The translations under genes were made by a program, and so were the position numbers. From NCBI GenBank assembly GCA_902489795.1, contig CABUBU010000005.1, positions 166 through 64,165 on the forward strand: a stretch of DNA of 64,000 nucleotides. Direction: 5' to 3'. Numbering within the stretch: position 1 is the stretch's first letter; every line of letters starts with the position of its first letter. The notes below the pieces were generated by a model. The model had not been told where the DNA came from and did not search any database. It worked only from the letters and a program-made list of their open reading frames with translations. Source of the stretch: an uncultured Azospirillum sp. (GTDB lineage: Bacteria > Pseudomonadota > Alphaproteobacteria > RF32 > CAG-239). This document shows, piece by piece, positions 2,288 to 62,898 of the stretch.

Positions 2288-3661
2288 TTATAAGGGAATA
2301 GAAATGAGTACCCTCAAGCCTCCTATCGGTGAATCGGCCAGCTCTATTTTGCCGCCGTGTGAAACGATAACGTCCTTGGCAATCGACAGTCCGAGACCGA
2401 CGCCGCCGGTTTCCTTGTTGCGGGAACCTTCAATCCGGTAAAAGGCCTTGAACACGTCTTCCCTTTTGTCGGGCGGAATCCCCGGCCCGTCGTCATCGAC
2501 CGTCACTTCCAGCTTGTTGTTGTTGCTCTCAAGCGCAACCGAAACCGTGCTGCCGTAGTTAAACGCGTTGCCGATAACGTTGGTCAGCGCCCTTTTCAGC
2601 GACTGTTCGCGCCCCTGAATGGCGCTCACCTGATCGTTGGTGCTGTAACGGATCAGCGCCTTGCTGTTGCGGAATTTGTTCAAAATGCTTAAAATCATTT
2701 CGTTCATGTCAACAAAAGTCGACGGTTCGCCGCCTTCGCCGCTGACAAACGACAAATAGCCTTCAAGCATTTTTTCCATCTCGTTGACGTCTTGCAGAAA
2801 CTCTTCCTTGTCCAGACCGTTTTTATCGCCGTTGTCGGGCAGCATCGCCAACTGCAGCTTCATCCGCGTCAGCGGCGTGCGCAGATCGTGGGAAACGCCG
2901 GCCAGCATCTGCGTTCTTTCGCTGATCTGGCGCTGAATGCGCTCTTTCATCTTGATAAAGGCAATGCCGGCGCGGCGCACTTCCGAAGAACCGTAAGGCT
3001 TGAACTTTTTATTGTCCACCCCTTTGCCGAACTCTTCAGCAGCTTCCGCCAGATCAGCAATCGAACGAACCTGAATGCGCAGAAACAAAACCGCCACCAG
3101 AAACAGCAAAAGCGAAGTGCCGATCATCCAGGCGACGAACCCGAAAATGGAAGTACTGAAAATATTCTTTGACGAAGTCGCAAACTGATACAAACCTTTT
3201 TCGGTATCGACGAAAACCACCAGGTCGGGATTGCTCTTGCCGATGTAAATGCTGGTGATCGCTTCCGGAAACTCCACTCTCAGCGCGTCTTCCAAAAACC
3301 CGGTCACCAGTTTGTTCTGTTTTCTGACCTTGCGGATCACCTCATGCTTTTTGTCGTTGGGATAATACTCAAACTCCATGTCAAAAATCTCTTTGGTCAG
3401 CGCCTGAATTTCGGGCAGATTGGCCGGAGATTTTTCCGACAACTGTATGGCAAAGGCCATGTTGGACGTCAGATTGGTAGAGAGCCGTTTGCCGACCCGC
3501 CCCCAGCTGCCGTCAAAAAACGCGACGATCGACACCACCTGAACCACAATCAACGGAATGAAGATCAGAAGCATCGTACGAAAGAACAGCGTGCGCGGCA
3601 GCATCTTGATCTTCAGATAGCGCATCGTGTCTTCCACTTTTTTCGGAAATGTCAAATGCAT
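2288..3661 (-). CDS. envZ: Sensor histidine kinase, EnvZ-like
   Basis: 457-aa ORF with two hydrophobic segments, H-box SHDLRTPLTR and ATPase boxes (NAFNYG, DDDGPGIP, GGVGLGLSI) resembling E. coli EnvZ. It lies 30 nt downstream of the ompR-like gene. Confidence 0.85.
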   Translation of the reverse strand: MHLTFPKKVEDTMRYLKIKMLPRTLFFRTMLLIFIPLIVVQVVSIVAFFDGSWGRVGKRLSTNLTSNMAFAIQLSEKSPANLPEIQALTKEIFDMEFEYYPNDKKHEVIRKVRKQNKLVTGFLEDALRVEFPEAITSIYIGKSNPDLVVFVDTEKGLYQFATSSKNIFSTSIFGFVAWMIGTSLLLFLVAVLFLRIQVRSIADLAEAAEEFGKGVDNKKFKPYGSSEVRRAGIAFIKMKERIQRQISERTQMLAGVSHDLRTPLTRMKLQLAMLPDNGDKNGLDKEEFLQDVNEMEKMLEGYLSFVSGEGGEPSTFVDMNEMILSILNKFRNSKALIRYSTNDQVSAIQGREQSLKRALTNVIGNAFNYGSTVSVALESNNNKLEVTVDDDGPGIPPDKREDVFKAFYRIEGSRNKETGGVGLGLSIAKDVIVSHGGKIELADSPIGGLRVLISIPL

Positions 3662-3691
3662 TTTCCCGCTCCTTCAAGTTATCAAAAAAAG

Positions 3692-4396
3692 TTATTCGGT
3701 CAGCAGCATATAGCCTTTGCCGCGAACCGTCTGCAAATAGCGCGGATTTTTGGAATCCCTTTCAATCTTCTTGCGCAGCCTTGTCACCTGCACGTCAATC
3801 GAACGCGGCCCCTGTCCGGCCCCCAGCAGTTCCGCCAGCCGATCGCGGCTGAAAATCTGCCCCGGCTTCTGTCCCAAAAGCGAAAGCATGGACTGTTCCA
3901 CCGGCGTGATATGGACAATCTCCCCGTCTGCGCCGGTCAGTTCCCGGGTTTCCAGATCATAGCGGCAAAGCCCCAGGTTAAGCCGGGTTTCCTGTTTTTC
4001 GTTTTCCTGCGGCGCGCGGCGGAGAATGTTTTTAATCCTCAAAACCAGTTCCTTGGGTTCAAACGGCTTCGGCAGATAATCGTCGGCACCGCTCTCCAGC
4101 CCCGCGATACGGTCGCCGGTTTCCCCCATCGCCGTCAGCAGAATTACCGGAACGTTGTCTTCCTTTCTCAGGCCGGCAAGAAATTCCAGACCGCTTTCCT
4201 CGGGCATCATAATGTCGACGATCAGAAGATCGAACTTATACTGTTTCAGCATCATCCGGGCTTCCGCCGCGCCTTTGGCGGCCGACACGCGAAAACCGTT
4301 TTCCTGCAGAAAGCGCTGCAGCAGCGCCCGCAGACGGGTATCGTCGTCCACCACCAGAATATGCGCTTTGTGCATTTCCATCGCGGCTCCGGCCAA
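3692..4396 (-). CDS. ompR: OmpR-family response regulator
   Basis: Receiver domain (ILVVDDDTRLRALL, LLIVDIMMP, DDYLPKPF) plus a winged-helix C-terminus (VTRLRKKIE...YLQTVRGKGY), alignable by eye to E. coli OmpR. The start is ambiguous (ATG at 4396, 4381 or 4375). Confidence 0.9.
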   Translation of the reverse strand: MAGAAMEMHKAHILVVDDDTRLRALLQRFLQENGFRVSAAKGAAEARMMLKQYKFDLLIVDIMMPEESGLEFLAGLRKEDNVPVILLTAMGETGDRIAGLESGADDYLPKPFEPKELVLRIKNILRRAPQENEKQETRLNLGLCRYDLETRELTGADGEIVHITPVEQSMLSLLGQKPGQIFSRDRLAELLGAGQGPRSIDVQVTRLRKKIERDSKNPRYLQTVRGKGYMLLTE

Positions 4397-51754: not shown

Positions 51755-54472
51755 ATGAACGATACGCAACGAACGATTGAACAGGCACTTTCCTTGCGCG
51801 CCCCGCAAAAGGAAAGCCTCGACATTCTGGTACAAATTTTAAACAAAATCGTCTTAAGCAAAGAGATGTCCGCCGACGAAGCGCTGTGCCTGATTCGGGA
51901 AGTCTGCCCTTCCGTCAAAGACTTCGAACATGCCTTTCCCTGCATTTGCTTCGCCATCGCCACCGGCGTGGGCAAAACCCGGCTGATGGGCGCAATGATC
52001 GCCTATCTGCACGCGGAAAAAGGCATAAAAAATTTCATGGTTCTGGCACCCAACCTGACAATCTACAACAAGCTCAAAACCGACTTCACGCCCAATACCG
52101 AAAAATATGTTTTTCCCGGGTTGAAAGCGCTGGTTGACGTTCCGCAAATCATCACCGGCGACGATTATCATCAGGTCGGCGGTTTGTTTGACAATCCGAA
52201 CGACAACCGTGTCCGCATCAACATTTTCAATATTTCCAAGATCGATTCCGACAAAGACGCACGCGGCATGCCGCGCGTCCGCCGAATGGCCGAATATCTG
52301 GGACAGTCTTATTTCGACTATCTTTCCGGTTTAAAGGATTTGGTTTTGATTATGGACGAAGCGCACCGTTACCGTGCCAATGCCGGTATGGCCGCCGTCA
52401 ATGAACTGCACCCGTTTTTGGGAATTGAACTGACGGCCACCGCCAAATCGACCGGCGCCAAAGGCAAGCCTTTCCGCAACATTGCCTATGAATACAATCT
52501 GGCGCACGCCATTTGCGACGGTTACGTCAAAAAACCGGCAGTCGTCGGCCGCCTGGATTTTAACTGCGACCTGTACGGAAGCGGCAATTCCGAAGCGTTG
52601 GAAAATCTGAAAATCAAAGACGGCATCAAAGTACACGAAAGCATCAAGGCGGAATTGCAGGTTTATGCCGACAACAAAAAAAACAAAACGGTCAAACCTT
52701 TTATGATGATTGTCGCCCAGAACATTGATCATGCGGAACGCATTGAGGCAAAAATAAAAAGCGACGATTTTGAAGACGGCCGCTATAAAGACAAGGTCAT
52801 CGTCGTCAACTCCAAACAAAACGGCGAACTGAAAGACGAAGTCCTGCAACGGCTGCTGGCAATCGAAAACGCCGATGAACCGACCGAAATCGTTATCCAT
52901 GTCAATATGCTGGGCGAAGGCTGGGACGTCAACAACCTTTATACTATTGTACCGCTTCGTGCCGCCGATTCCAAAATTCTGGTTGAACAGACGATCGGCC
53001 GCGGTCTGCGTCTGCCGTTCGGAAAACGAACCGGCGTTGACGTCATCGACCGCCTGCATGTGATTGCGCACGACAAATTTGCGGACATCATCAATGCCGC
53101 TCAGGCGGAGCAATTCGAGTTTCAGCGGGAATATATCGACAACACGGACAGCGGCCTGACGGGAAAAAAGGCGGAAGACAACACCAGTAAACTGGACGAC
53201 GAAGTGAAAAACGGTCATATCGTCGTCACCCGGCCGACACCGGACAAACAGGGTAAACTGCCGGTTTTTGACAACGACGTCAATAAACAGATCGGCGACA
53301 TCGTGCGCGAAGCAATTAACGAAACCAGCCGCTACGCCCTGACCGCCGAAAATCTGTTAACGCCGGATAATCAAAACAGGATTGTCGAAATCGCAACCGA
53401 AAAAATCAAGGAAATCCGGTTGGAAAATTCCGAACTGTCGCTTGAACCGCTGGTTGACGTCAAAGAAACGGCCAAGCGCTATACGGAAAGCTTCATCAAA
53501 CTGAACATTTCCGTCCCGCGGATAAAAATTCTGTACGAACAGGAAGGCGATTTTACTTTTGACGATTTTGACATCGACACCGCGGATTTTGCCGGTTATC
53601 AGCCTTTGCGACCAACAGTTATCATCGGAGAACTGATGGATAAAGGCAAACAGGACGAAATAAAGGCCGAATTTGTCGACTGCCATTCGGACATCACGCA
53701 CTACCTGCTGGTACCGCTGATCGAAGACCCGGCCATCTCATACCAGAAAAACGCCGACTTGCTGTATAAGCTGATTCATCAGGTGATTGATTACATCACT
53801 TCCTATTCCGGCAGCGAACTGAACACCCGGAAGATTCTGTACTTCCACGGTGAAAAACTGGCGCAGAAAATCTGCACGCAGATAAAAGCCCATCTGCGGG
53901 AAGCGCCGATGACCAAACGCGTCAAAATAGACAGCGGGTATGCCGCGGTCACTTCCGCCTCTTACAAAATCAGCACAACGGAAGGACAGGATGCGCTGGA
54001 TATACATGCTTTCGTCCGCGACAAGGAAAAAATCCGCAATTTGGTCTTTACCGGTTTCAACAAATGCCTGTTTGCCAAACAAAAATTCGATTCCAACACC
54101 GAAAAGGAACTGGCGGAAATTCTGGAACGCACGCCGGCCGTGCAAAAATGGTTCAAAATCAACAATGACCGCGCCGGAGAAATTTTTGACATCAAATATT
54201 CGGACGACGATCGACAAATGCACCGTTACTTGCCGGATTTCATCGTTGAAACCGTTGACGCCAAATATATGATCGAAACCAAAGCGGCAAATCAGATGAG
54301 TGACAAGGTCGTGCAGGCCAAAAAAGAAGCCGCCGTCGACTGGTGCAAAATCGCCACCGGTTTTGAACGGGAGCATCACGGCAAACCCTGGCACTACCTG
54401 TTGATCCCCGACACGACCATTGTTGCCGACCGCGGCTTTGACAAACTCGTCAACGATTTTGAGGAAGATTAA
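51755..54472 (+). CDS. res: Type III-like restriction endonuclease/helicase subunit (Res)
   Basis: 905 aa. SF2 helicase motifs I (IATGVGKT), II (IMDEAHRY) and VI (QTIGRGLRL). C-terminal PD-(D/E)xK nuclease motif (YLPDFIVET...YMIETK). Confidence 0.88.
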   Translation: MNDTQRTIEQALSLRAPQKESLDILVQILNKIVLSKEMSADEALCLIREVCPSVKDFEHAFPCICFAIATGVGKTRLMGAMIAYLHAEKGIKNFMVLAPNLTIYNKLKTDFTPNTEKYVFPGLKALVDVPQIITGDDYHQVGGLFDNPNDNRVRINIFNISKIDSDKDARGMPRVRRMAEYLGQSYFDYLSGLKDLVLIMDEAHRYRANAGMAAVNELHPFLGIELTATAKSTGAKGKPFRNIAYEYNLAHAICDGYVKKPAVVGRLDFNCDLYGSGNSEALENLKIKDGIKVHESIKAELQVYADNKKNKTVKPFMMIVAQNIDHAERIEAKIKSDDFEDGRYKDKVIVVNSKQNGELKDEVLQRLLAIENADEPTEIVIHVNMLGEGWDVNNLYTIVPLRAADSKILVEQTIGRGLRLPFGKRTGVDVIDRLHVIAHDKFADIINAAQAEQFEFQREYIDNTDSGLTGKKAEDNTSKLDDEVKNGHIVVTRPTPDKQGKLPVFDNDVNKQIGDIVREAINETSRYALTAENLLTPDNQNRIVEIATEKIKEIRLENSELSLEPLVDVKETAKRYTESFIKLNISVPRIKILYEQEGDFTFDDFDIDTADFAGYQPLRPTVIIGELMDKGKQDEIKAEFVDCHSDITHYLLVPLIEDPAISYQKNADLLYKLIHQVIDYITSYSGSELNTRKILYFHGEKLAQKICTQIKAHLREAPMTKRVKIDSGYAAVTSASYKISTTEGQDALDIHAFVRDKEKIRNLVFTGFNKCLFAKQKFDSNTEKELAEILERTPAVQKWFKINNDRAGEIFDIKYSDDDRQMHRYLPDFIVETVDAKYMIETKAANQMSDKVVQAKKEAAVDWCKIATGFEREHHGKPWHYLLIPDTTIVADRGFDKLVNDFEED

Positions 54473-54561
54473 TGTAAAATATTTCATACACAGCAGTGTC
54501 AAGCAACATTGACATTTCGCATAAAATGTCGTATATTTACATTATATCGAGGAGCACGACA

Positions 54562-55335
54562 ATGACAAATGTTTTAAGAAGCCTGAGAGAACAAAAAGGC
54601 ATCTCTCAGGAAGAGTTAGCGTCTGAATTAAAAATAAGCCGTCAGACCCTGAGCAAATACGAAAACGAAGAAACTAAATTTTCTTTAGACATCATAAAAA
54701 AACTGGCCAGATTTTTTGATGTCGATTACTCATGCTTCATCGACAACAAAATGCCGCCGGAAACAACCTATAACATTATAGGAAACACGCCCAAAGAAAA
54801 CAAGACCGATATCCGCATCAACATTCCGCAGGAAAATATCAACAAATTCAAACAGGTTCTGCTTTATATCCTTAACAAAGTCGGCGCCAAACCGAATGTC
54901 GGGCAAACGGTAATTTACAAGCTTCTTTACTTCATAGATTTCGATTATTACGAAATATACGAAGAACAGCTGATGGGACTGAAATATATCAAAAATACAT
55001 ACGGCCCGACGCCGGTTGATTTTGCCAAATTAATAAAACAGATGGAAGACGACGGTTCTTTGGAAGAAATAAAAACCAAATATTTCAACCATGACCAAAC
55101 CAAATATCTTCCCCGCATACAACCGGATTTGTCCCTGCTTTCCGGACAGGAGCTGGCGCATATCGACAAAGAACTGGAACGCCTTGCCGGCCGGACGGGA
55201 AAAGAACTGTCGGAATTCTCGCATAAGGACATTCCGTGGATCGGCGCGGAAATGAACGAGGTTTTGGAGTACGAGGCCGTTTTTTACAGAACCCCGGAAA
55301 CTTCTGTTCGGGAGTATGACGAAGCAGATGATTAA
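54562..55335 (+). CDS. XRE-HTH plus Panacea (DUF4065/SocA-like) domain antitoxin
   Basis: ATG at 54562 with GGAG 8 nt upstream. HTH LREQKGISQEELASELKISRQTLSKYE. C-terminal domain with IYKLLYFIDFDYYEIYEEQLMGLKYIKNTYGPTPVDF, typical of DUF4065. Confidence 0.8.
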   Translation: MTNVLRSLREQKGISQEELASELKISRQTLSKYENEETKFSLDIIKKLARFFDVDYSCFIDNKMPPETTYNIIGNTPKENKTDIRINIPQENINKFKQVLLYILNKVGAKPNVGQTVIYKLLYFIDFDYYEIYEEQLMGLKYIKNTYGPTPVDFAKLIKQMEDDGSLEEIKTKYFNHDQTKYLPRIQPDLSLLSGQELAHIDKELERLAGRTGKELSEFSHKDIPWIGAEMNEVLEYEAVFYRTPETSVREYDEADD

Positions 55336-55699
55336 CTACGTAACTGTTCCCGAGTTTGACAAGGATTTCAAAACCGTGTCAAAAAAATTCCGAACTTTGG
55401 AAAAAGATTTCGGACATATGAAAAAATACACGATAGAAACGTTTTACGAAAAAGGTGTCCCGACAACGGCGTTTGTCCCCATTGAAGGTTTTTGTGGAGA
55501 AAACTATACTTCCAACAAAATGCGCAAGTTTTCCTGCCAGTCGTTAAAAGGCAGAGGTTCGGCATCGGGTATCAGGGTTATTTTCATCTGGGAAGAAGAA
55601 ACGCGAAAAATAACTTTTATCGAAATCTATTTTAAGGCAGATCAAGCCAACGAAAACAAAGAACGCCTGCAAAAATTTATAAAAGAAAATTTCGGATAG
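55316..55699 (+). CDS. RelE/ParE-superfamily-like toxin (putative)
   Basis: 127 aa (or 123 from ATG 55328). Overlaps the antitoxin stop by 20 or 8 nt. The C-terminal block GIRVIFIWEEETRKITFIEIYFK resembles the R-hh-Y...I-x-h-h-x-h core of RelE/ParE toxins (motif memory). Confidence 0.55.
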   Translation: MTKQMINYVTVPEFDKDFKTVSKKFRTLEKDFGHMKKYTIETFYEKGVPTTAFVPIEGFCGENYTSNKMRKFSCQSLKGRGSASGIRVIFIWEEETRKITFIEIYFKADQANENKERLQKFIKENFG

Positions 55700-55710
55700 G
55701 ATAATTCAAT

Positions 55711-56469
55711 ATGTATTGTTACTTGTTCTATGAGTTCTATACTCCGACACAAACATCTCATTCAATTTACAACTGGTGGAAAGATATCTGGTTGCCGGCG
55801 GCCGGTGCAATAGCAATTCCATTACTGGTTTGGTGGTTAAGTTGGCTTTTTGGAGCAAGCCGTGCTGAACAACAAAAGGAATTGAGAGATTTGAGAAATA
55901 ATCTTAATTTGCTTTCATCTATACTACTATCAACCTTTCAATCTCTGCTGTCATTAAAAGAAAATTTTGAAAACTGTCAAAAAATATATCCGTTAAAAAT
56001 TACTCCTTATGATAAAATAAATAAAATTGACAAATGTTTATTCATTGATTTTCCAATACTGAATAATATTGATATTTCTAAATACTCCCCTTGTATAAAT
56101 GCATATGGTAATTTTGTTATCGACTTAGTGAATATTAAACAAGGTTGTCGCATATTAAACGAAATGATTTTGCACAGAAATGAAGTGTTAAAATCAATCG
56201 GTTCCTGTGAGGATGAGCACATGAAAAAACTCAGAATTTTTGATTTTATTGCCGAAGATTCTGAAAATAATATTTCTAATCTGATGAGAACGAACAAACT
56301 AATACTGGAAATAAAAGAACTGGTTGATAAAATAAATATTTTAAAAACAAAAATAAAAGGCCTAAACTTAGAAGAAGTAACATTTGATGAAAACTCTTTA
56401 CAGCAATTTAAAAATATAAAATTAGAAATTGAGAAATTTATTCAAGATACAAAGGAACCAAATAAATGA
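55711..56469 (+). CDS. Orphan single-pass membrane protein translationally coupled to mod
   Basis: 252 aa, very AT-rich. One TM helix (WLPAAGAIAIPLLVWWLSWLF) followed by a helical/coiled Asn/Lys/Ile/Leu-rich domain. The stop overlaps the mod ATG (ATGA at 56466-56469). No family recognised. Confidence 0.65.
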   Translation: MYCYLFYEFYTPTQTSHSIYNWWKDIWLPAAGAIAIPLLVWWLSWLFGASRAEQQKELRDLRNNLNLLSSILLSTFQSLLSLKENFENCQKIYPLKITPYDKINKIDKCLFIDFPILNNIDISKYSPCINAYGNFVIDLVNIKQGCRILNEMILHRNEVLKSIGSCEDEHMKKLRIFDFIAEDSENNISNLMRTNKLILEIKELVDKINILKTKIKGLNLEEVTFDENSLQQFKNIKLEIEKFIQDTKEPNK

Positions 56470-58787
56470 CTGAAAAATTGCAGAGACTGGAACTGACATG
56501 GCCGGGGAAGGAAGACCGATTTAACCCGGAACCGCGGATACTGCTGGAAGACAAGGGAAAGTCCTATTCCAAACCTGTAATTTCTTCCCCTTTGCGTGAA
56601 AAAGAACGCTCTTCCGCCATTTCCTCCCCCTTGAGGAGGGAGGATAAAGGAGAGGGTGAACAACCCAGTTTCCTTCCTTTAAGTAGCAAAGAATGCTCTT
56701 CCGTCATTTCCTCCCCCTTGAGGGGGGAGGATAAAGGAGAGGGTGAACAACCCAGTTTCCTTCCTTTAAGTAGCAAAGAATGCTCTTCCGTCATTTCCTC
56801 CCCCTTGAGGGGGGAGGATAAAGGAGAGGGTGAACAACCTAACCTCCTTTCTTTAGCAAAAAAAATGAGGCATAATCCGACAGAAGCCGAAAATAAAATG
56901 TGGCAAATTCTGCGTAACAATCAATTAGGTTATAAAATACGACGTCAACATCAGATAGGCCAATACATAGTTGATTTTATATGTTTGGAAAAAAAATTAA
57001 TTATTGAATGCGATGGCGGCCAACATAATGAAACCGTCGACAAGGAAAGAACACTTTTTTTGGAAAATGAAGGCTTTAGAGTTATTCGTTTTTGGAATAA
57101 TGAAATATTAAATAATATAGAAGGATGTTGGGAGATAATTCAAAAAAGCCTGAATGATTGTACCCCTCACCCTAACCCTCTCCCCCAAGGGGCGAGGAAT
57201 TCCATTGTCCTTGAAACCTCTCCCTTGAGGGAAGAAGGCGACACTTTAGTGTCGAGCGAGGGTGATAAGTTAAATCTACTTAAGACGAAGAGAATTCAAC
57301 CGACTTTCGACAATATGCTGATCCACGGCGACAACCTGCTGGCCTTGAAAGCCCTGGAGCAGGACTATACCGGTAAAATCAAATGTATTTACATAGATCC
57401 GCCGTACAATACAGGTAACGCTTTCGAACATTATGACGACGGACTGGAACACTCCATCTGGCTTTCGCTGATGAGAGACAGATTGGAGATTTTGAGAAGA
57501 TTATTAAGTAATGACGGAGGCAGTATTTGGATTTCCATTGATGCGGACGAAAGTCATTACCTGAAAGTCCTTTGTGATGAAATTTTTGGCCGTCAATGTT
57601 TTGTTGATGAAGTTATCTGGCAACGAGCCTTTGCTCCTGTAAATTTAAAGAAAACGCTTTCACGTTCTCACGATACAATTTTAGTATATTGCAAAAATCC
57701 TATTAATTTTATCTTAAATACATTACCAAGAAGTGATAAACAATGTGAAAATTATAAAAATCCAGACAATGACCCCAGAGGTGCATGGACATCGGCAGAT
57801 TGTACTGTGGGACCTGTAGTTGAAGAAAAACTCTATGAAATAATAACTCCTGGGGGACGTTCTGTATTTCCTCCCGAAGGACGTTGTTGGTTATTTTCTA
57901 AAGATAGATTTGAAGAAGTGGTAGCAGATAATCGTATATGGTTTGGAAAAAATGGCAATAATGCACCTCGTGTAAAAAAATTTATATCAGAAGTCAAAGG
58001 CGGGGTTGTTGCGACAACGCTCTGGACCCGTGATGAATGTGGGGATAATCAGGAAGCTAAAAGAGAAATCAAGGCTTTATTTCCTGATGAAAAAAATCCG
58101 TTCGATACACCTAAACCCGAACGTTTAATTCAAAGAATCTTAACATTAGCATCCAACCCCGGCGATCTTGTTTTAGACAGCTTTTTAGGTTCAGGAACGA
58201 CTGCCGCCGTAGCGCAAAAAATGGGACGTCGCTGGATTGGGGTGGAAATGGGCGACCATGTTTACACACATTGCATTCCCCGCCTGAAAAAAGTAATCGA
58301 CGGCGAAGATCAGGGCGGCATCACCAAAACCGTCAACTGGCAGGGCGGCGGCGGTTTCAAATTCTATGAACTGGCTTCTTCCCTGATCGTGACCGACAAA
58401 TACGGCCAGCAGATCATTTCCAAAGAATACAACGCCGACATGCTGGCCGAAGCCATGTGCAAAATCTTAGGCTATCACTATAAACCGGATAAGGAAATTT
58501 ACTGGAAACAGGGCTTTTCTTCCGAAAAGAACTTTATCTATACCACCACCATGAGCTTGCAGGAAAGTTCGCTTGACCGCCTCGCCGAAGAAATCGGCGA
58601 CAACAACCTGCTGATTTGTTGCAGCGCCTTTGTCGGCAACAGCAGGATATATCCTAACATCTCGGTCAAAAAAATTCCCGCCGCTATCCTCAAAAAATGC
58701 GAATGGGGCCGCGAAGGCTACCCCCTCAACCTCCGCAACTACCACCCAACCGACGAAGAATTTGAATTCGAGGAGGAAGAGGAATAA
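56466..58787 (+). CDS. mod: Type III-like N6-adenine/N4-cytosine DNA methyltransferase (Mod) with an in-frame DUF559 endonuclease-domain insertion
   Basis: N-terminus LELTWPGKEDRFNPEPRILLED, motif IV IYIDPPYNTGN, motif I DSFLGSGTTAAVAQ (beta-class order). Residues ~35-265 are repeats plus a DUF559/Vsr-like domain (MWQILRNNQLGYKIRRQHQIGQYIVDFICLEKKLIIECDGGQH...RVIRFWNNEIL). Confidence 0.88.
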   Translation: MTEKLQRLELTWPGKEDRFNPEPRILLEDKGKSYSKPVISSPLREKERSSAISSPLRREDKGEGEQPSFLPLSSKECSSVISSPLRGEDKGEGEQPSFLPLSSKECSSVISSPLRGEDKGEGEQPNLLSLAKKMRHNPTEAENKMWQILRNNQLGYKIRRQHQIGQYIVDFICLEKKLIIECDGGQHNETVDKERTLFLENEGFRVIRFWNNEILNNIEGCWEIIQKSLNDCTPHPNPLPQGARNSIVLETSPLREEGDTLVSSEGDKLNLLKTKRIQPTFDNMLIHGDNLLALKALEQDYTGKIKCIYIDPPYNTGNAFEHYDDGLEHSIWLSLMRDRLEILRRLLSNDGGSIWISIDADESHYLKVLCDEIFGRQCFVDEVIWQRAFAPVNLKKTLSRSHDTILVYCKNPINFILNTLPRSDKQCENYKNPDNDPRGAWTSADCTVGPVVEEKLYEIITPGGRSVFPPEGRCWLFSKDRFEEVVADNRIWFGKNGNNAPRVKKFISEVKGGVVATTLWTRDECGDNQEAKREIKALFPDEKNPFDTPKPERLIQRILTLASNPGDLVLDSFLGSGTTAAVAQKMGRRWIGVEMGDHVYTHCIPRLKKVIDGEDQGGITKTVNWQGGGGFKFYELASSLIVTDKYGQQIISKEYNADMLAEAMCKILGYHYKPDKEIYWKQGFSSEKNFIYTTTMSLQESSLDRLAEEIGDNNLLICCSAFVGNSRIYPNISVKKIPAAILKKCEWGREGYPLNLRNYHPTDEEFEFEEEEE
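56565..57265 (+). other. In-frame insertion module inside mod: hairpin repeats - DUF559 domain - hairpin repeats
   Basis: DUF559 domain at ~56865-57160. Left flank: 87-bp tandem repeats, each with the hairpin CCTCCCCC-TTGA-GGGGGAGG. Right flank: hairpins CCTCTCCCCCAAGGGGCGAGG, CTCTCCCTTGAGGGAAGAAG and CGACACTTTAGTGTCG. The mod sequence resumes at ...FDNMLIHGDNLLALKAL. Confidence 0.7.
56578..56860 (+). repeat. ~3.2 copies of an 87-bp (29-codon) tandem repeat
   Basis: AGGATAAAGGAGAGGGTGAACAACC starts at 56641, 56728 and 56815 (period exactly 87), with a diverged partial copy at 56578-56640. The array is open in frame on both strands. Confidence 0.9.
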
Positions 58788-58810
58788 CAAATTCCGCACG
58801 CTCCCCTTTC

Positions 58811-58841
58811 AGGCATGACCACCCTTGTCATGCCTTTTTTA
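58811..58841 (+). terminator. Intrinsic terminator of mod
   Basis: AGGCATGAC-CACCCTT-GTCATGCCTTTTTT, located 24 nt after the mod stop. Confidence 0.8.
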
Positions 58842-58903
58842 TCTCCTCCTCGTCTGCCATACCTTTTCTTTTATCTCATCTTTCCTGCATTTTCTGTCTT
58901 CCT

Positions 58904-59640
58904 GTCATGCCTCCGACGGGCAAAAAGCCCGGCGGATCAGGCATCTTTTGCCCCTCCGGTCATCACCTTTGTTCAGGCATCTTTTGAAAAAGGAAAAACA
59001 TTGTATAATCCCTAAACTCGCTCGCTCACGCTCCCTCGCGGGATGACAGTCTGAAGAGGGTTCACGCTCCCTCGCGGGATGACAACCTCAAATTGTCATG
59101 CCTCCGACGGGCGAAAAGCCCGGCGGATCAGGCATCTTTTGCCCCTCCGGTCATCACCTTTGTTCAGGCATCTTTTGAAAAAGGAAAAACATTGTATAAT
59201 CCCTAAACTCGGTCGCTCACGCTCCCTCGCGGGATGACAACCTCAAATTGCCATGCCTCCGACGGGCAAAAAGCCCGGCGGATCAGGCATCTTTTGCCCT
59301 TCTGTTACTCCCTTTGAACAGGCTCCTCCTGAAAAAGGAAAAAACATTGTAAGATCCCTAAACTCGGTCGCTCACGCTCCCTCGCGGGATGACAACTTCA
59401 AATTGTCATGCCTCCGACAGGCGAAAAGCCCGGCGGATCAGGCATCTTTTGCCCCTCCGGTCATCACCTTTGTTCAGGCATCTTTTAAAAAAGGAAAAAC
59501 ATTGTAAGATCCCTAAACTCGGTCGCTCCCACTCCCTCGCGGGATGACAGTCTGAAGAGGGTTCACGCTCCCTCGCGGGATGACAGTCTGAAGAGGGTTC
59601 ACGCTCCCTCGCGGCAGAATGACGGCTTGGAGTATCTGCT
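58904..59640. repeat. Four tandem copies of a 155-191-bp unit with nested 36-bp sub-repeats
   Basis: Units start at 58904, 59095, 59250 and 59405 with G(T/C)CATGCCTCCGAC(G/A)GGC(A/G)AAAAGCCCGGCGGATCAGGCATCTTTTGCCC. Each ends in one to three copies of TCACGCTCCCTCGCGGGATGACAGTCTGAAGAGGGT. There are no unique spacers. Confidence 0.92.
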
Positions 59641-59728
59641 CGCAGGACGGCGTTTTTTTTCAATAAAGGCTCATGATTTCAGGAACGTTTCACTCGCAGG
59701 CCGACAGATAAACAAGAAGCGAAAAAAC

Positions 59729-60007
59729 TCAAAATAATCGTTCGTACAAATCAGACCACTCAGGGTTGTTTTCTTCTATCAATCTTATCTTCACTTTCCG
59801 AAACGCTTTTTTCAAAAACTTTTCCCGGGCAATAGCCTCATTTTCGCCAACAATCTCCTCAAAATAAACCAGCCGGATCAGATTATAACGCTTGGTAAAC
59901 CCTTCAAACAGCTTGTTCCTGTGCTCATAAACCCTTCTCGTCAGGTCTTTTGTCACTCCGACATACAGCGTTCCGCCTTTTTTGTTACTCATAATGTAAA
60001 CGTACAT
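59729..60007 (-). CDS. Small GIY-YIG nuclease family protein (COG2827/UPF0213-like)
   Basis: 92 aa: MYVYIMSNKKGGTLYVGVTKDLTRRVYEH...LVYFE...AIAREKFLK. The ATG shares one nucleotide with the SNF2 stop (TGATG at 60005-60009). Confidence 0.85.
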   Translation of the reverse strand: MYVYIMSNKKGGTLYVGVTKDLTRRVYEHRNKLFEGFTKRYNLIRLVYFEEIVGENEAIAREKFLKKAFRKVKIRLIEENNPEWSDLYERLF

Positions 60008-62898
60008 CAGCTTTTTACTTCCCAGGTAACATCAAACACCTGTTCAATGGTGTAATCCAATTTCAGACTGCGCTTTTTGCCGCCGATGAGGCGGTTGCAC
60101 TTCTTTTCCAGCTCACGCTCAATGTCAAAAGTATTGAACTCGTTATCGTTCATTTCTTTTTGCAGACGTTTGATTTCTTCATCCAAAGCCAGTTTTTTTG
60201 CAAAATCTTTCTCCAACTTAAACTGGCGTTTCAGATTGCCGATCTTATTTTTCATCTTTTCGCCTTTCAGATGAATGGCCTGTTTTTCATCCGCCAACCA
60301 GCGAGTAAGCTTGTCTACCTCAATTTTTAACAAAACATCGACCCGGTGCTTTTCGGATTTCTCATATTCGGCAATATTCCTTTCGTGCAGCCGCCGAATC
60401 AAATCCTGATACCCCATCTCAACCGGCGCAGCCGTTTTCCGCACATTATCAAAAATGTCTTCCGGTTTCAAATTTAACGCTTCGCCGTGATCGTCAATAA
60501 CTGCCGACAACAGACGAAAAGACTTTTCCGGCGCATTTTGCCTGAACAAAGACAAAATCAGCCGCCCGCGTTGTCCGGATTTTAACTTGTCTCCCGCCTT
60601 CAACAACAAATGGCACGCCTCGACCGGCTGCGCCAGCGCCTCCCGTAAAATAATCCGCCCGAACTCACTGTCCGGATTGTACGGCGTAGCTCCCCGCCAA
60701 ACGGCTTTGCGATCCTGCGGAGAAAGAAAACGATTATTGTCGCGGCTTGAAAAATCCAGACAGAAATTGAAATTCTTATTGAAAACAATGTCCGACGGCC
60801 GGTCAAAAACCTGTTCTTCAAAAGGGCCGAACACCTGCCGCGCCGGATTGATAAACATATCAGGATGATTTTTTTCCAGCATGATAACCGACAAATCCCA
60901 GAAAATTTGCTTGCGGCGTTCCAAATAATCTTCAACCCTCCGCTTGATGACCTGCAGTTTTTCCTGTGTGGTCGGGTTCAGGTTTTCCAGAACCAACTGG
61001 CGCGTTTCTTCCATTTTGGCATCACGCTTCACGCCAAGGCTTGCCTGTAATTCGTCAAAAGCACGGTTAATTTCCTCGGTTGTCCGGCACAATTCAAATA
61101 TGGAGGCCACCGCACGCTCAAAATCCACGCCGTCGGACAATGTGCCCAAAATTTCGTCGCTGGCACCGAATACATCGTCAAACAATTTAAATTTATATTG
61201 CAAAATATCATAAAGGCGCACATCGGCAAGATTCTGTTTGTTGATAAAATTGATGATTACAACATCGCATTTTTGCTTATAACGATGAATACGCCCGATT
61301 CTCTGTTCTATTCTTTGCGGATTCCACGGCAAATCGTAATTGACCAGCAGCGAACAAAACTGCAAATTCAGCCCCTCGGCCGCCGCCTCGGTGGCAATCA
61401 TGATTTCCGCCTCTTCCCTGAAAGCCGCAACCAGAGCTTTTTTCATATCGTTGGCTCGCGAACCGGTCAGCTCCGCCGAGTGATTTTCGACAAAATCGTT
61501 GTAAATCCGATTGCAAAGCGGGGAATTGTTCTGACCGTTAAAGGTGATGATTTTATCCTTAAAACCGTGAGCCGAAAGATAATCGAAAAGATAATTCAAA
61601 GTCCGGTTGCTTTCCGTAAAAATAATTACCTTGCGCAAACCTCCCTTTTCCCTGATTTTTTCAAATCCCCGGTTGATCGCGCCGACAAGCTTTTCCGTCT
61701 TGCCGTCAACTTCGATTTTACCCGCCTTGTCAATCAACGACTGCAAAAATTCCTTTTCGGCTTTAAGGTCAGCATCCGTCGGATAATTCTTAGCATAAGC
61801 GTTGCGGCAGCGATCGTCAAAATCCGACAGGGAATCCTGATATTCTTCCAGCAAATCTTCATCAAACACAATAAGATCACCGGTGTTTCCGCCAAGTTTC
61901 TCAATACGGCACAGCCTTTCCATCAACTTTTCCAATGTTCCTTTGACCGCCGCGGTGGAGGAACTCATCAATTTGCGTATCATCAGAACAATCAGCGTAC
62001 GATAACGGGTGGTAACGGCAATCTTTGAAACATCCTGAATATAAGCCGAAACTTCCCGGTAAAGTTCTTCTTCCGCTGGAGTCGGATTAAACGCAACAGT
62101 CATTGCCTCGCGATTGGTATATTTAATATACTCCGAAACATCTTTGCGCAAAGTGCGATGCAAAACGCATTTTAAACGTTCTTTCAGCTCAATATGATGC
62201 CGTTCGGAATACAGGTAATTTTCCATAAAAGAATATTCATTGCCCAAAATATGCGGATCAATAATCGTTACCAGCGAAAAAATGTCCATCAGAGAATTTT
62301 GAATGGGCGTTGCCGTCAACAAAAGCTTTTTCTTACCGTAAAAAGCCTCATTAATCCCGTCAGCCGTTTTAGTCTTGCCTTTATAAAAATTACGGAGCTT
62401 ATGCGCTTCGTCCAAAACGACCAGATCCCAATCATGTTGTTTCATGCAATCTTTTAGCTGCACCGCACAATTATACGAACAAACCGTCACGCCTTTAAAC
62501 AACAGCGGATTTTCCTTTTCCGACTTCAAAGCCTTGCCATAAATCCCGGCCTCAATAACCCGGGTCGGCAAATTAAATTTTTCCTGCATTTCAGCCTGCC
62601 ATTGCTGGCAAAGACTTGCCGGCGCAACAACCAGAACGGAAGTTCGGCCGCGTGAAAAATATTCGGAAACGACGATACCTGCCTCAATCGTCTTTCCCAA
62701 ACCGACTTCATCGGCCAGAATAACACCTTGCGACAACGGGGATTTCAAGGCAAACAACGCCGCTTCGATTTGATGCGGATTCATATCAATTTTAGATGTT
62801 TCCAATGAACCGGAAATGTTTCCCATATCCGCCTGGTTATTGGAAGCTAAAACTTCCAAAGCCCAATATTTTGCTTTTATTTCTTCTGTCGTTATCAT
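60007..62898 (-). CDS. SNF2/RAD54-family helicase with ~350-aa uncharacterised C-terminal region
   Basis: 963 aa. Motifs I ADEVGLGKTIEAG, II LVVLDEAHKLRN, III LLLTATPIQNSL and VI QRIGRIHRYKQ. The C-terminal third has no recognised motif and ends in a coiled-coil-like Lys/Glu-rich segment. Confidence 0.9.
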   Translation of the reverse strand: MITTEEIKAKYWALEVLASNNQADMGNISGSLETSKIDMNPHQIEAALFALKSPLSQGVILADEVGLGKTIEAGIVVSEYFSRGRTSVLVVAPASLCQQWQAEMQEKFNLPTRVIEAGIYGKALKSEKENPLLFKGVTVCSYNCAVQLKDCMKQHDWDLVVLDEAHKLRNFYKGKTKTADGINEAFYGKKKLLLTATPIQNSLMDIFSLVTIIDPHILGNEYSFMENYLYSERHHIELKERLKCVLHRTLRKDVSEYIKYTNREAMTVAFNPTPAEEELYREVSAYIQDVSKIAVTTRYRTLIVLMIRKLMSSSTAAVKGTLEKLMERLCRIEKLGGNTGDLIVFDEDLLEEYQDSLSDFDDRCRNAYAKNYPTDADLKAEKEFLQSLIDKAGKIEVDGKTEKLVGAINRGFEKIREKGGLRKVIIFTESNRTLNYLFDYLSAHGFKDKIITFNGQNNSPLCNRIYNDFVENHSAELTGSRANDMKKALVAAFREEAEIMIATEAAAEGLNLQFCSLLVNYDLPWNPQRIEQRIGRIHRYKQKCDVVIINFINKQNLADVRLYDILQYKFKLFDDVFGASDEILGTLSDGVDFERAVASIFELCRTTEEINRAFDELQASLGVKRDAKMEETRQLVLENLNPTTQEKLQVIKRRVEDYLERRKQIFWDLSVIMLEKNHPDMFINPARQVFGPFEEQVFDRPSDIVFNKNFNFCLDFSSRDNNRFLSPQDRKAVWRGATPYNPDSEFGRIILREALAQPVEACHLLLKAGDKLKSGQRGRLILSLFRQNAPEKSFRLLSAVIDDHGEALNLKPEDIFDNVRKTAAPVEMGYQDLIRRLHERNIAEYEKSEKHRVDVLLKIEVDKLTRWLADEKQAIHLKGEKMKNKIGNLKRQFKLEKDFAKKLALDEEIKRLQKEMNDNEFNTFDIERELEKKCNRLIGGKKRSLKLDYTIEQVFDVTWEVKS

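Follow-up and report, generated by a model that had tools for sequence, protein, structure and literature searches.

A predicted single-pass membrane protein family carried in a variable slot between the res and mod genes of gut and rumen Alphaproteobacteria

ORF252 and its homologues

The window analysed here, a 64,000-nucleotide stretch of DNA from a 1.6 Mb genome of an uncultured Azospirillum sp., carries a Type III-like restriction-modification (R-M) operon with a gene of an unannotated family just ahead of its methyltransferase gene. An earlier note on the same DNA described this gene as an orphan that is wired into the methyltransferase gene by an overlap of stop and start codons. Is its product a part of the R-M enzyme, a separate function that travels with the operon, or no protein at all?

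The gene, ORF252 (55711..56469, plus strand), starts at an ATG at 55711, stops at a TGA at 56467-56469 and encodes 252 amino acids. An AGGA Shine-Dalgarno-like motif (55698-55701, plus strand) is positioned 9 nt 5' of this ATG and shares bases with the TAG that ends the preceding 127-aa gene. ORF252 is as AT-rich as the earlier note described. Its GC content is 0.29 overall, against about 48% in the flanks, and measurements in 300-nt windows give 0.26-0.28 over 55850-56449 and 0.45-0.54 in res, mod and the flanks.

ORF252 is a genuine gene, and it is not an orphan. We identified 13 clusters of homologues at 90% identity in a large protein collection and 55 representative clusters at 50% identity in an exhaustive HMMER scan. 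Nearly all family members are 223-278 aa long and share a common architecture. Homologues that do not conserve the reading frame, a prospect that the earlier note had raised, are not what we found: dN/dS between allele pairs is 0.14-0.3, in the whole gene and in the variable C-terminal part alike, and the frame appears to be under purifying selection. The very low GC content and the lack of a database family could also be expected of a chance open frame within an AT-rich spacer. Such a reading conflicts with the 55 frame-conserving clusters, with dN/dS values well below 1, with a confident fold prediction and with the Shine-Dalgarno motif. Its probability is practically nil, the homologue clusters and dN/dS having already refuted it.

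The absence of a recognisable family held up under database searches. ORF252 has no match in Pfam, NCBIfam, PHROGs or PADLOC. Across 45 aligned members, no single Pfam family (LemA, SLATT and chemoreceptor 4HB included) matches more than one member, and NCBIfam, PHROGs and PADLOC return nothing consistent. A family profile searched against PDB sequences gave only coiled-coil noise (E at least 0.13), and Foldseek searches of the ORF252 model against PDB and BFVD returned only generic helical bundles (best E 0.28 and 0.13). These comparisons linked ORF252 to no known effector, either by homology or by fold.

All named hits come from metagenome-assembled genomes of gut or rumen Alphaproteobacteria. 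As seen so far, the family appears to have a narrow taxonomic range, confined to RF32 Alphaproteobacteria of the gut and rumen. 'Azospirillum sp. 51_20', which we take to be an RF32-type lineage, carries a copy of ORF252 with 99% identity. Related loci were retrieved with an 11-sequence family alignment. They include a single 'viral' contig with a family member, L038 (IMG/VR UViG_3300042816_000265). Its tblastn results are identical to those of the metagenome locus L034 (res, ORF, mod, SNF2), and its viral label was probably given to a chromosomal island or to a region next to a prophage. On a low-coverage metagenome contig (L029 4521-6293), the first 87 ORF252 codons continue in frame into a Cas4-like C-terminus, with cas1 and cas2 behind it. 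This fusion is either an assembly chimera or a true gene-breaking rearrangement.

A variable slot between res and mod

The left frame of the slot that holds ORF252 is res (51755..54472, plus strand), which encodes a Type III-like restriction subunit with a ResIII helicase and a C-terminal TnsA-like nuclease. Two co-cargo genes follow in the window: an HTH-XRE and SocA/Panacea antitoxin-like gene (54496..55335, plus strand) and the gene for its 127-aa partner (55316..55699, plus strand), a putative toxin with no family match. The right frame is mod (56466..58787, plus strand), which encodes a Type III methyltransferase (N6_N4_Mtase) and here contains a repeat and DUF559 insertion. Beyond it lies a convergent gene for an SNF2 (DrmD-like) helicase (60007..62898, minus strand), whose synteny with res and mod extends to almost every related locus. 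The order res, slot, mod, second slot and convergent SNF2 is conserved in RF32 gut and rumen Alphaproteobacteria. Related loci encode Res proteins of 900-905 aa, and their Res and SNF2 proteins are about 70-82% identical to the window copies.

We identified an ORF252-family gene between res and mod at more than 20 distinct loci. Many of these loci were retrieved through the ORF252 family itself, which biases such counts. An unbiased set comes from a search of 283 same-order genomes with Res only: 19 carry Res, and about 16 loci are readable downstream of res. ORF252-family genes occupy the slot at 11 of these approximately 16 loci. The other five contain alternative fillings or an empty slot, namely RhuM with a 128-136-aa gene (two loci), a Bro-N gene alone (one locus), DUF3800 with a 167-aa gene (one locus) and an empty slot of 48 bp (one locus, G022). 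The res-to-mod interval is a variable cargo slot, and ORF252 is its commonest, non-obligatory occupant. Because five of about 16 loci do without it, ORF252 is not required by the R-M system. Nor is it a subunit of the Type III-like enzyme, a role that we rejected on the same absence and on the lack of Pfam or PADLOC Res or Mod domains.

The company that ORF252 keeps in the slot also varies. Its co-cargo includes HTH-Panacea genes with their 127-153-aa partners, Bro-N or KilA-N genes, a gene for a 223-aa TM-like protein and a gene for a 142-149-aa helical protein. At many loci, ORF252 is the only cargo, or its neighbours in the slot are Bro-N, KilA-N, 223-aa or 145-aa genes. We rejected ORF252 as a third component of the Panacea toxin-antitoxin (TA) system, since the TA pair accompanies it in four lineages only (the window type, L002/L013, L059 and L060). 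Comparison of co-cargo across loci likewise led us to reject an obligate pairing with Bro-N/KilA-N or with the 145-aa gene.

The slot has sharp edges. On the left, cargo begins 1-15 nt past the res stop; on the right, it ends inside the ribosome-binding leader of mod. This conserved leader (56452..56469, plus strand) consists of an AAGGA Shine-Dalgarno sequence, a 9-nt spacer and ATGA. It is read as the final codons of ORF252, the last five of which (KEPNK*) are the conserved mod leader, AAGGAACCAAATAAATGA. In a junction alignment across loci, the 12-16 nt immediately 5' of the mod ATG are conserved (AAGGAAC..AA(A/T)AA-ATGAC), irrespective of the upstream gene, and the relative with an empty slot keeps them too. 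Bro-N, 128-147-aa and 223-aa cargo genes likewise terminate in the leader, and cargo ORFs stop at a TAA or TGA within or just past the mod ATG. The C-termini of cargo proteins are similar (KEPNK* in the window, ..KND* and ..ENDK* elsewhere) because their ORFs run into this leader.

The earlier note was right that the TGA of ORF252 shares three bases with the mod ATG (ATGA at 56466-56469; mod ATG at 56466-56468). Its conclusion that ORF252 is wired into mod does not hold for this gene specifically, as the overlapping sequence is mod's own leader and is common to unrelated cargo and the empty slot. Since every cargo ORF enters the leader, the ATGA overlap is a property of the slot and not of ORF252. 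An ATGA overlap with a conserved neighbour need not imply a specific functional partnership.

Co-transcription of ORF252 with mod, which the earlier note had also proposed, is plausible. The spacing from res to mod in the window is tight (24 nt, 20-nt overlap, 11 nt and 4-nt overlap), and the first convincing terminator-like hairpin (58811..58835, plus strand; 9 pairs and then a T-run) lies 3' of mod. Coupled translation of the two genes is possible as well, with nothing in it that is specific to ORF252. Transcription of ORF252 and mod could arise by read-through from res or from a promoter of the TA genes. A strong promoter-like sequence, TTGACA-17-TATATT (54509-54537, plus strand), is located ahead of the HTH-Panacea gene or at its start. 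This gene start is flanked by a pair of promoter-like sites (54509-54568) that face each other and each match the consensus at 11/12 positions. Such a pair would suit a TA promoter under autoregulation, from which ORF252 and mod could be transcribed as well.

The interval between mod and SNF2 varies too, so the res, mod and SNF2 frame carries two cargo slots. This second slot contains repeats and a GIY-YIG gene in the window (58788-60006). Elsewhere it holds a gene for an ApeA_NTD1 protein of 509 aa (L007), a 341-aa gene (L003), a 603-aa gene (L002) or 465-aa and 214-aa genes (L079). The window Mod has an in-frame insertion of about 235 aa (87-bp repeats and DUF559) after residue ~36 (56565-57265), which is missing from the 99%-related L012 and from all other relatives. 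Several res/mod/SNF2 islands have a gene for a large serine recombinase or integrase within a few kb (L079 691-2427, L001 1-1138 and L003 16013-16609). This proximity suggests that the whole block may ride on integrative elements.

Other genomic contexts and allele exchange

Divergent members of the ORF252 family also occur outside the res-to-mod slot. One member lies within a Type I operon (L078; hsdM, hsdS, ORF253, hsdR). Two others are convergent with and abut two D12-class methylase genes, with a 460-aa gene in addition (L076 and L077). At L015, the order is Bro-N, ORF241 and then a gene for an OLD-family ATPase-TOPRIM nuclease. At L001, the family gene is divergent from a Hachiman HamA-helicase pair and adjoins a Type II R-M system. 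Further members are found near a PLD, helicase, HATPase_c_3 and PAPS-reductase cluster (L075) and behind an HTH-Peptidase_M78 gene (L073). The sole non-defence neighbour is gyrA (L008), on a contig that ends shortly past the family gene. The earlier note had envisaged homologues that are never linked to R-M or defence genes; R-M or other defence neighbours are instead present almost always.

Alleles of ORF252 move between these loci. Res identity is nearly constant at 70-75%, while ORF252 identity to the window copy spans 32-74%. Some pairs of alleles are mosaic, L034 and L017 for example, with a dS of 0.34 in the N-terminal 75 codons and 0.01 in the remainder. An allele from an R-M slot (L031) is 78% identical to the L015 allele from the OLD context. 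Covariation of ORF252 with Mod specificity was rejected, because ORF252 is 99% identical among same-species strains whose Mod target-recognition domains (TRDs) differ. Across L020-L028, loci of the window's own species, res, TA, ORF252 and SNF2 are 96-99% identical. The central target-recognition region of their Mod proteins shows 86% or 69-70% identity or is unalignable across the middle, which suggests TRD swapping within the species.

These contexts bear on whether ORF252 works with the R-M enzyme. On the model of PrrC, it could be an R-M guardian or a coupled partner whose helical bundle binds Res/Mod or HsdMSR. A guardian would be held latent and, once the enzyme is disabled by an anti-restriction factor of a phage, would collapse the membrane potential. 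A tether would hold the R-M complex at the inner membrane near the site of DNA entry. Either form is consistent with the embedding of the family between restriction and modification genes of Type III-like as well as Type I operons, and with the potential coupling of translation to mod; the hsdS-hsdR position at L078 is also that of prrC in EcoprrI (PMC12707154). A fixed partner is, however, hard to reconcile with five of about 16 loci that lack ORF252, with family members beside OLD, Hachiman and other non-R-M neighbours, and with the 78% identity between alleles from an R-M slot and an OLD context. The lack of covariation with the Mod TRD or with res divergence leans against latency enforced by the R-M system, and one binding surface is unlikely to suit Type I, II and III enzymes. 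We consider a guardian or coupled partner of this kind unlikely. An autonomous module is favoured over a fixed Res/Mod partnership because ORF252 is dispensable, has heterogeneous partners and does not covary with Mod.

Autonomy could also mean that ORF252 has no defence role. The GC content of the family is 25-34% everywhere and that of most host loci is 30-37%, against 48% in the window genome. Because the family and most of its host loci are AT-rich, ORF252 was probably imported into this genome from lower-GC relatives, and its AT-richness would reflect this import together with an Asn/Lys/Ile-rich composition. The slot may moreover gather selfish passengers, since Bro-N, KilA-N, RhuM and TA co-cargo are typical of mobile elements. 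ORF252 might then be a selfish or addiction-type gene (a small membrane toxin, for example) or a neutral hitch-hiker, maintained because the slot is a hotspot of recombination that is read through with the operon. Such a passenger would be at home among the mobile-element genes of the slot, the 29% GC of ORF252 in a 48% GC genome is what an import would show, and serine recombinases or integrases flank some islands. It would not be expected to remain under purifying selection across deep divergence or to be re-embedded repeatedly in different defence systems, with no housekeeping context save gyrA at L008. Embedded genes are also mostly defence-related in systematic surveys. A non-defence passenger seems unlikely.

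Protein architecture and a candidate function

We identified a single hydrophobic segment in ORF252, at residues 26-49 (Kyte-Doolittle 19-residue maximum 1.74), where the earlier note had placed one transmembrane (TM) helix near the N-terminus. All 45 aligned members contain a single strong hydrophobic helix (mean KD19 2.0). K+R residues average 1.4 N-terminal to this helix and 4.0 C-terminal to it. Under the positive-inside rule, the side richer in K+R is cytoplasmic, and the excess on the C side places the helical bundle in the cytoplasm. ORF252 is predicted to be a bitopic inner-membrane protein with a short N-terminus outside and a helical bundle of about 200 aa in the cytoplasm. A signal peptide cleaved after FGAS is unlikely, as the 23-residue Trp-flanked stretch lies 25 residues in and, in the model, runs on into the stalk helix.

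The AlphaFold2 model of ORF252, built with 45 family members, is all-helical (mean pLDDT 87.5, pTM 0.75), in line with the long helical domain that had been read from the sequence. A continuous helix (residues 20-92) comprises the TM segment and a stalk. It is followed by a short-helix insert (99-130) and by helices at 135-164, 169-214 and 227-248.

Conservation along the protein is uneven. Residues 1-25 (55711..55785, plus strand) are probably periplasmic and form a poorly conserved leader with low pLDDT and mosaic swapping between alleles. The TM helix (residues 26-49; 55786..55857, plus strand) has Trp belts and near-invariant P29, P37 and G48. Next comes a conserved juxtamembrane stalk (residues 50-75; 55858..55935, plus strand) with the consensus SRAEKQKELRELRDNLNLLxS, in which E53, K56, L65, N66, L68 and S70 are conserved at 90% or more. 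Residues 76-252 (55936..56466, plus strand) form a fast-diverging helical bundle in which only Y125 (KYSxCI motif) and N157 (xRN motif) are near-invariant. Mean pairwise identity in the family is 51% over residues 20-75 and 23% over the bundle. The bundle contains several cysteines, a conserved C128 among them. ORF252 has no catalytic motif, and a HEPN assignment for the xRN motif was rejected since no Rx4-6H motif is conserved in the alignment.

In the opposite orientation (N-in/C-out), a periplasmic bundle might block phage DNA injection, and ORF252 would act in superinfection exclusion independently of R-M. A single-pass protein with a four-helix bundle suits this activity, as does a location in defence islands. 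The weak best Foldseek matches, none of them significant, include the periplasmic four-helix sensor domains of Tar and TorS. The positive-inside signal is nevertheless family-wide and indicates a cytoplasmic C-terminus, and the bundle cysteines, including C128, argue in the same direction. The family was also not found in prophages, its lone viral-contig match being identical to a chromosomal-type R-M locus. We regard superinfection exclusion as improbable and return to an autonomous module with a cytoplasmic bundle.

A TM segment that serves merely as an anchor is usually the least constrained part of a protein. In the ORF252 family, the membrane-proximal part is more conserved than the bundle and is thus likely to be the working end. 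The conserved Pro/Gly residues and the polar stalk suggest that this part does a conserved job, while the bundle adapts to partners or triggers. Gene conversion or recombination, and not function, could account for part of the high conservation in the N-terminal third. A search for fusions found no case of the TM module joined to other domains, so a modular division into effector and sensor is without independent support.

From the embedding and this architecture, we infer a defence role, a membrane-effector mechanism and a division between sensor and effector. Our favoured reading, which we put forward tentatively, is that ORF252 is an autonomous embedded accessory anti-phage module with a membrane-acting output. 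It would be the commonest passenger in a recombination-exchanged slot and would share the operon of res and mod. The conserved TM and juxtamembrane segment would be the active end, probably forming oligomers that perturb the membrane in a response of the abortive-infection type, and sensing or regulation would fall to the fast-diverging cytoplasmic bundle. A related proposal makes ORF252 a membrane-anchored restriction guardian. In that case, the bundle would monitor the R-M enzyme or phage anti-restriction proteins, and the Pro/Gly TM helix and stalk would oligomerise into an infection-aborting leak. We think this version very unlikely; if true, the swap-in slot of the res/mod/SNF2 locus would carry a second line of defence that resembles PrrC and acts on the membrane.

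An autonomous anti-phage module would have known parallels. Most genes that lie nested within multi-gene defence systems are themselves defence genes, a principle termed 'guilt-by-embedding' (Payne et al., 2024, bioRxiv 10.1101/2024.01.29.577857). The RefSeq-based survey behind this principle covered Hma, BREX, DISARM and Type I R-M systems (Payne et al., 2024). PrrC, embedded in EcoprrI, is the classic example (PMC1484252, PMC12707154), and TgvAB in a Vibrio Type I operon is a recent one (PMC11411939). The ORF252 family is nested in known multi-gene defence systems, the embedding expected of HEC/PDC candidates. Like the embedded HEC/PDC, TgvAB and BrxU candidates, ORF252 is an uncharacterised gene within a defence system whose relatives also occur in other defence islands. 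Unlike them, it matches no PADLOC v2 HEC or PDC model (0 matches for ORF252, and only chance single-member matches across the 45 members). Type III-like res/mod operons were not covered by the HEC/PDC surveys, and RF32 metagenome-assembled genomes would be missed by RefSeq-based ones.

The likeness to PrrC lies in genomic position. Both are accessory genes nested amid an R-M operon, optional and horizontally exchanged, and the L078 gene sits exactly between hsdS and hsdR. PrrC, however, is a soluble ABC-ATPase and RNase (an anticodon nuclease), whereas ORF252 is a predicted single-pass membrane protein. We found no NTPase or nuclease motif, no ABC-ATPase or anticodon-nuclease domain and no sequence or fold similarity to PrrC in ORF252, and the comparative data on ORF252 argue against a fixed R-M partner.

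ORF252 also resembles RexB and the TM effectors of CBASS, Pycsar and retron systems, which are small TM proteins in defence loci with a conserved membrane part. Sequence and model both give it the integral membrane segment of the membrane Abi effector class. Typical members of this class possess 2-4 TM helices or a domain that binds a signal, and the partner that activates them is known. ORF252 instead combines one TM helix with a 200-aa bundle; neither a ligand-binding nor an enzymatic domain is recognisable in it, and it shows no homology to these effectors. In Campylobacter jejuni, the rlo ('R-linked ORF') genes of Type I loci are variable, strain-specific ORFs between hsd genes. They are similar to ORF252 in their variable insertion and differ in belonging to other families, the host operon of ORF252 being Type III-like.

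Defence-embedded accessory genes are already known as a kind; the ORF252 family is new and unannotated. To our knowledge, embedding in a Type III-like res-to-mod slot with sharp edges has no earlier description. Systematic surveys have shown genes nested within defence systems of several genes to be rich in new anti-phage functions, and the loci described here extend this pattern to a Type III-like res/mod/SNF2 host, to uncultured gut Alphaproteobacteria and to a sharply edged slot. As the most frequent occupant of that slot, with no known match, ORF252 is a concrete and cheaply tested defence candidate. The slot also provides a list of further candidates, which includes the 128-147-aa and 223-aa proteins and the Bro-N, KilA-N, RhuM and DUF3800 genes.

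Two of the recurrent slot proteins have no Pfam match. The 223-225-aa protein (L017 / L063 8906-9577 and L032) has an N-terminal hydrophobic segment and a helical body; homology to ORF252 was rejected (hhalign probability 0.3%). A helical family of 128-149 aa recurs immediately 5' of mod, behind ORF252 or RhuM. The largest slot seen (L032, 3.5 kb) contains tandem divergent ORF252 paralogues of 265 and 239 aa (2728-4150) that share a single res-to-mod interval with Bro-N, 225-aa and 147-aa genes.
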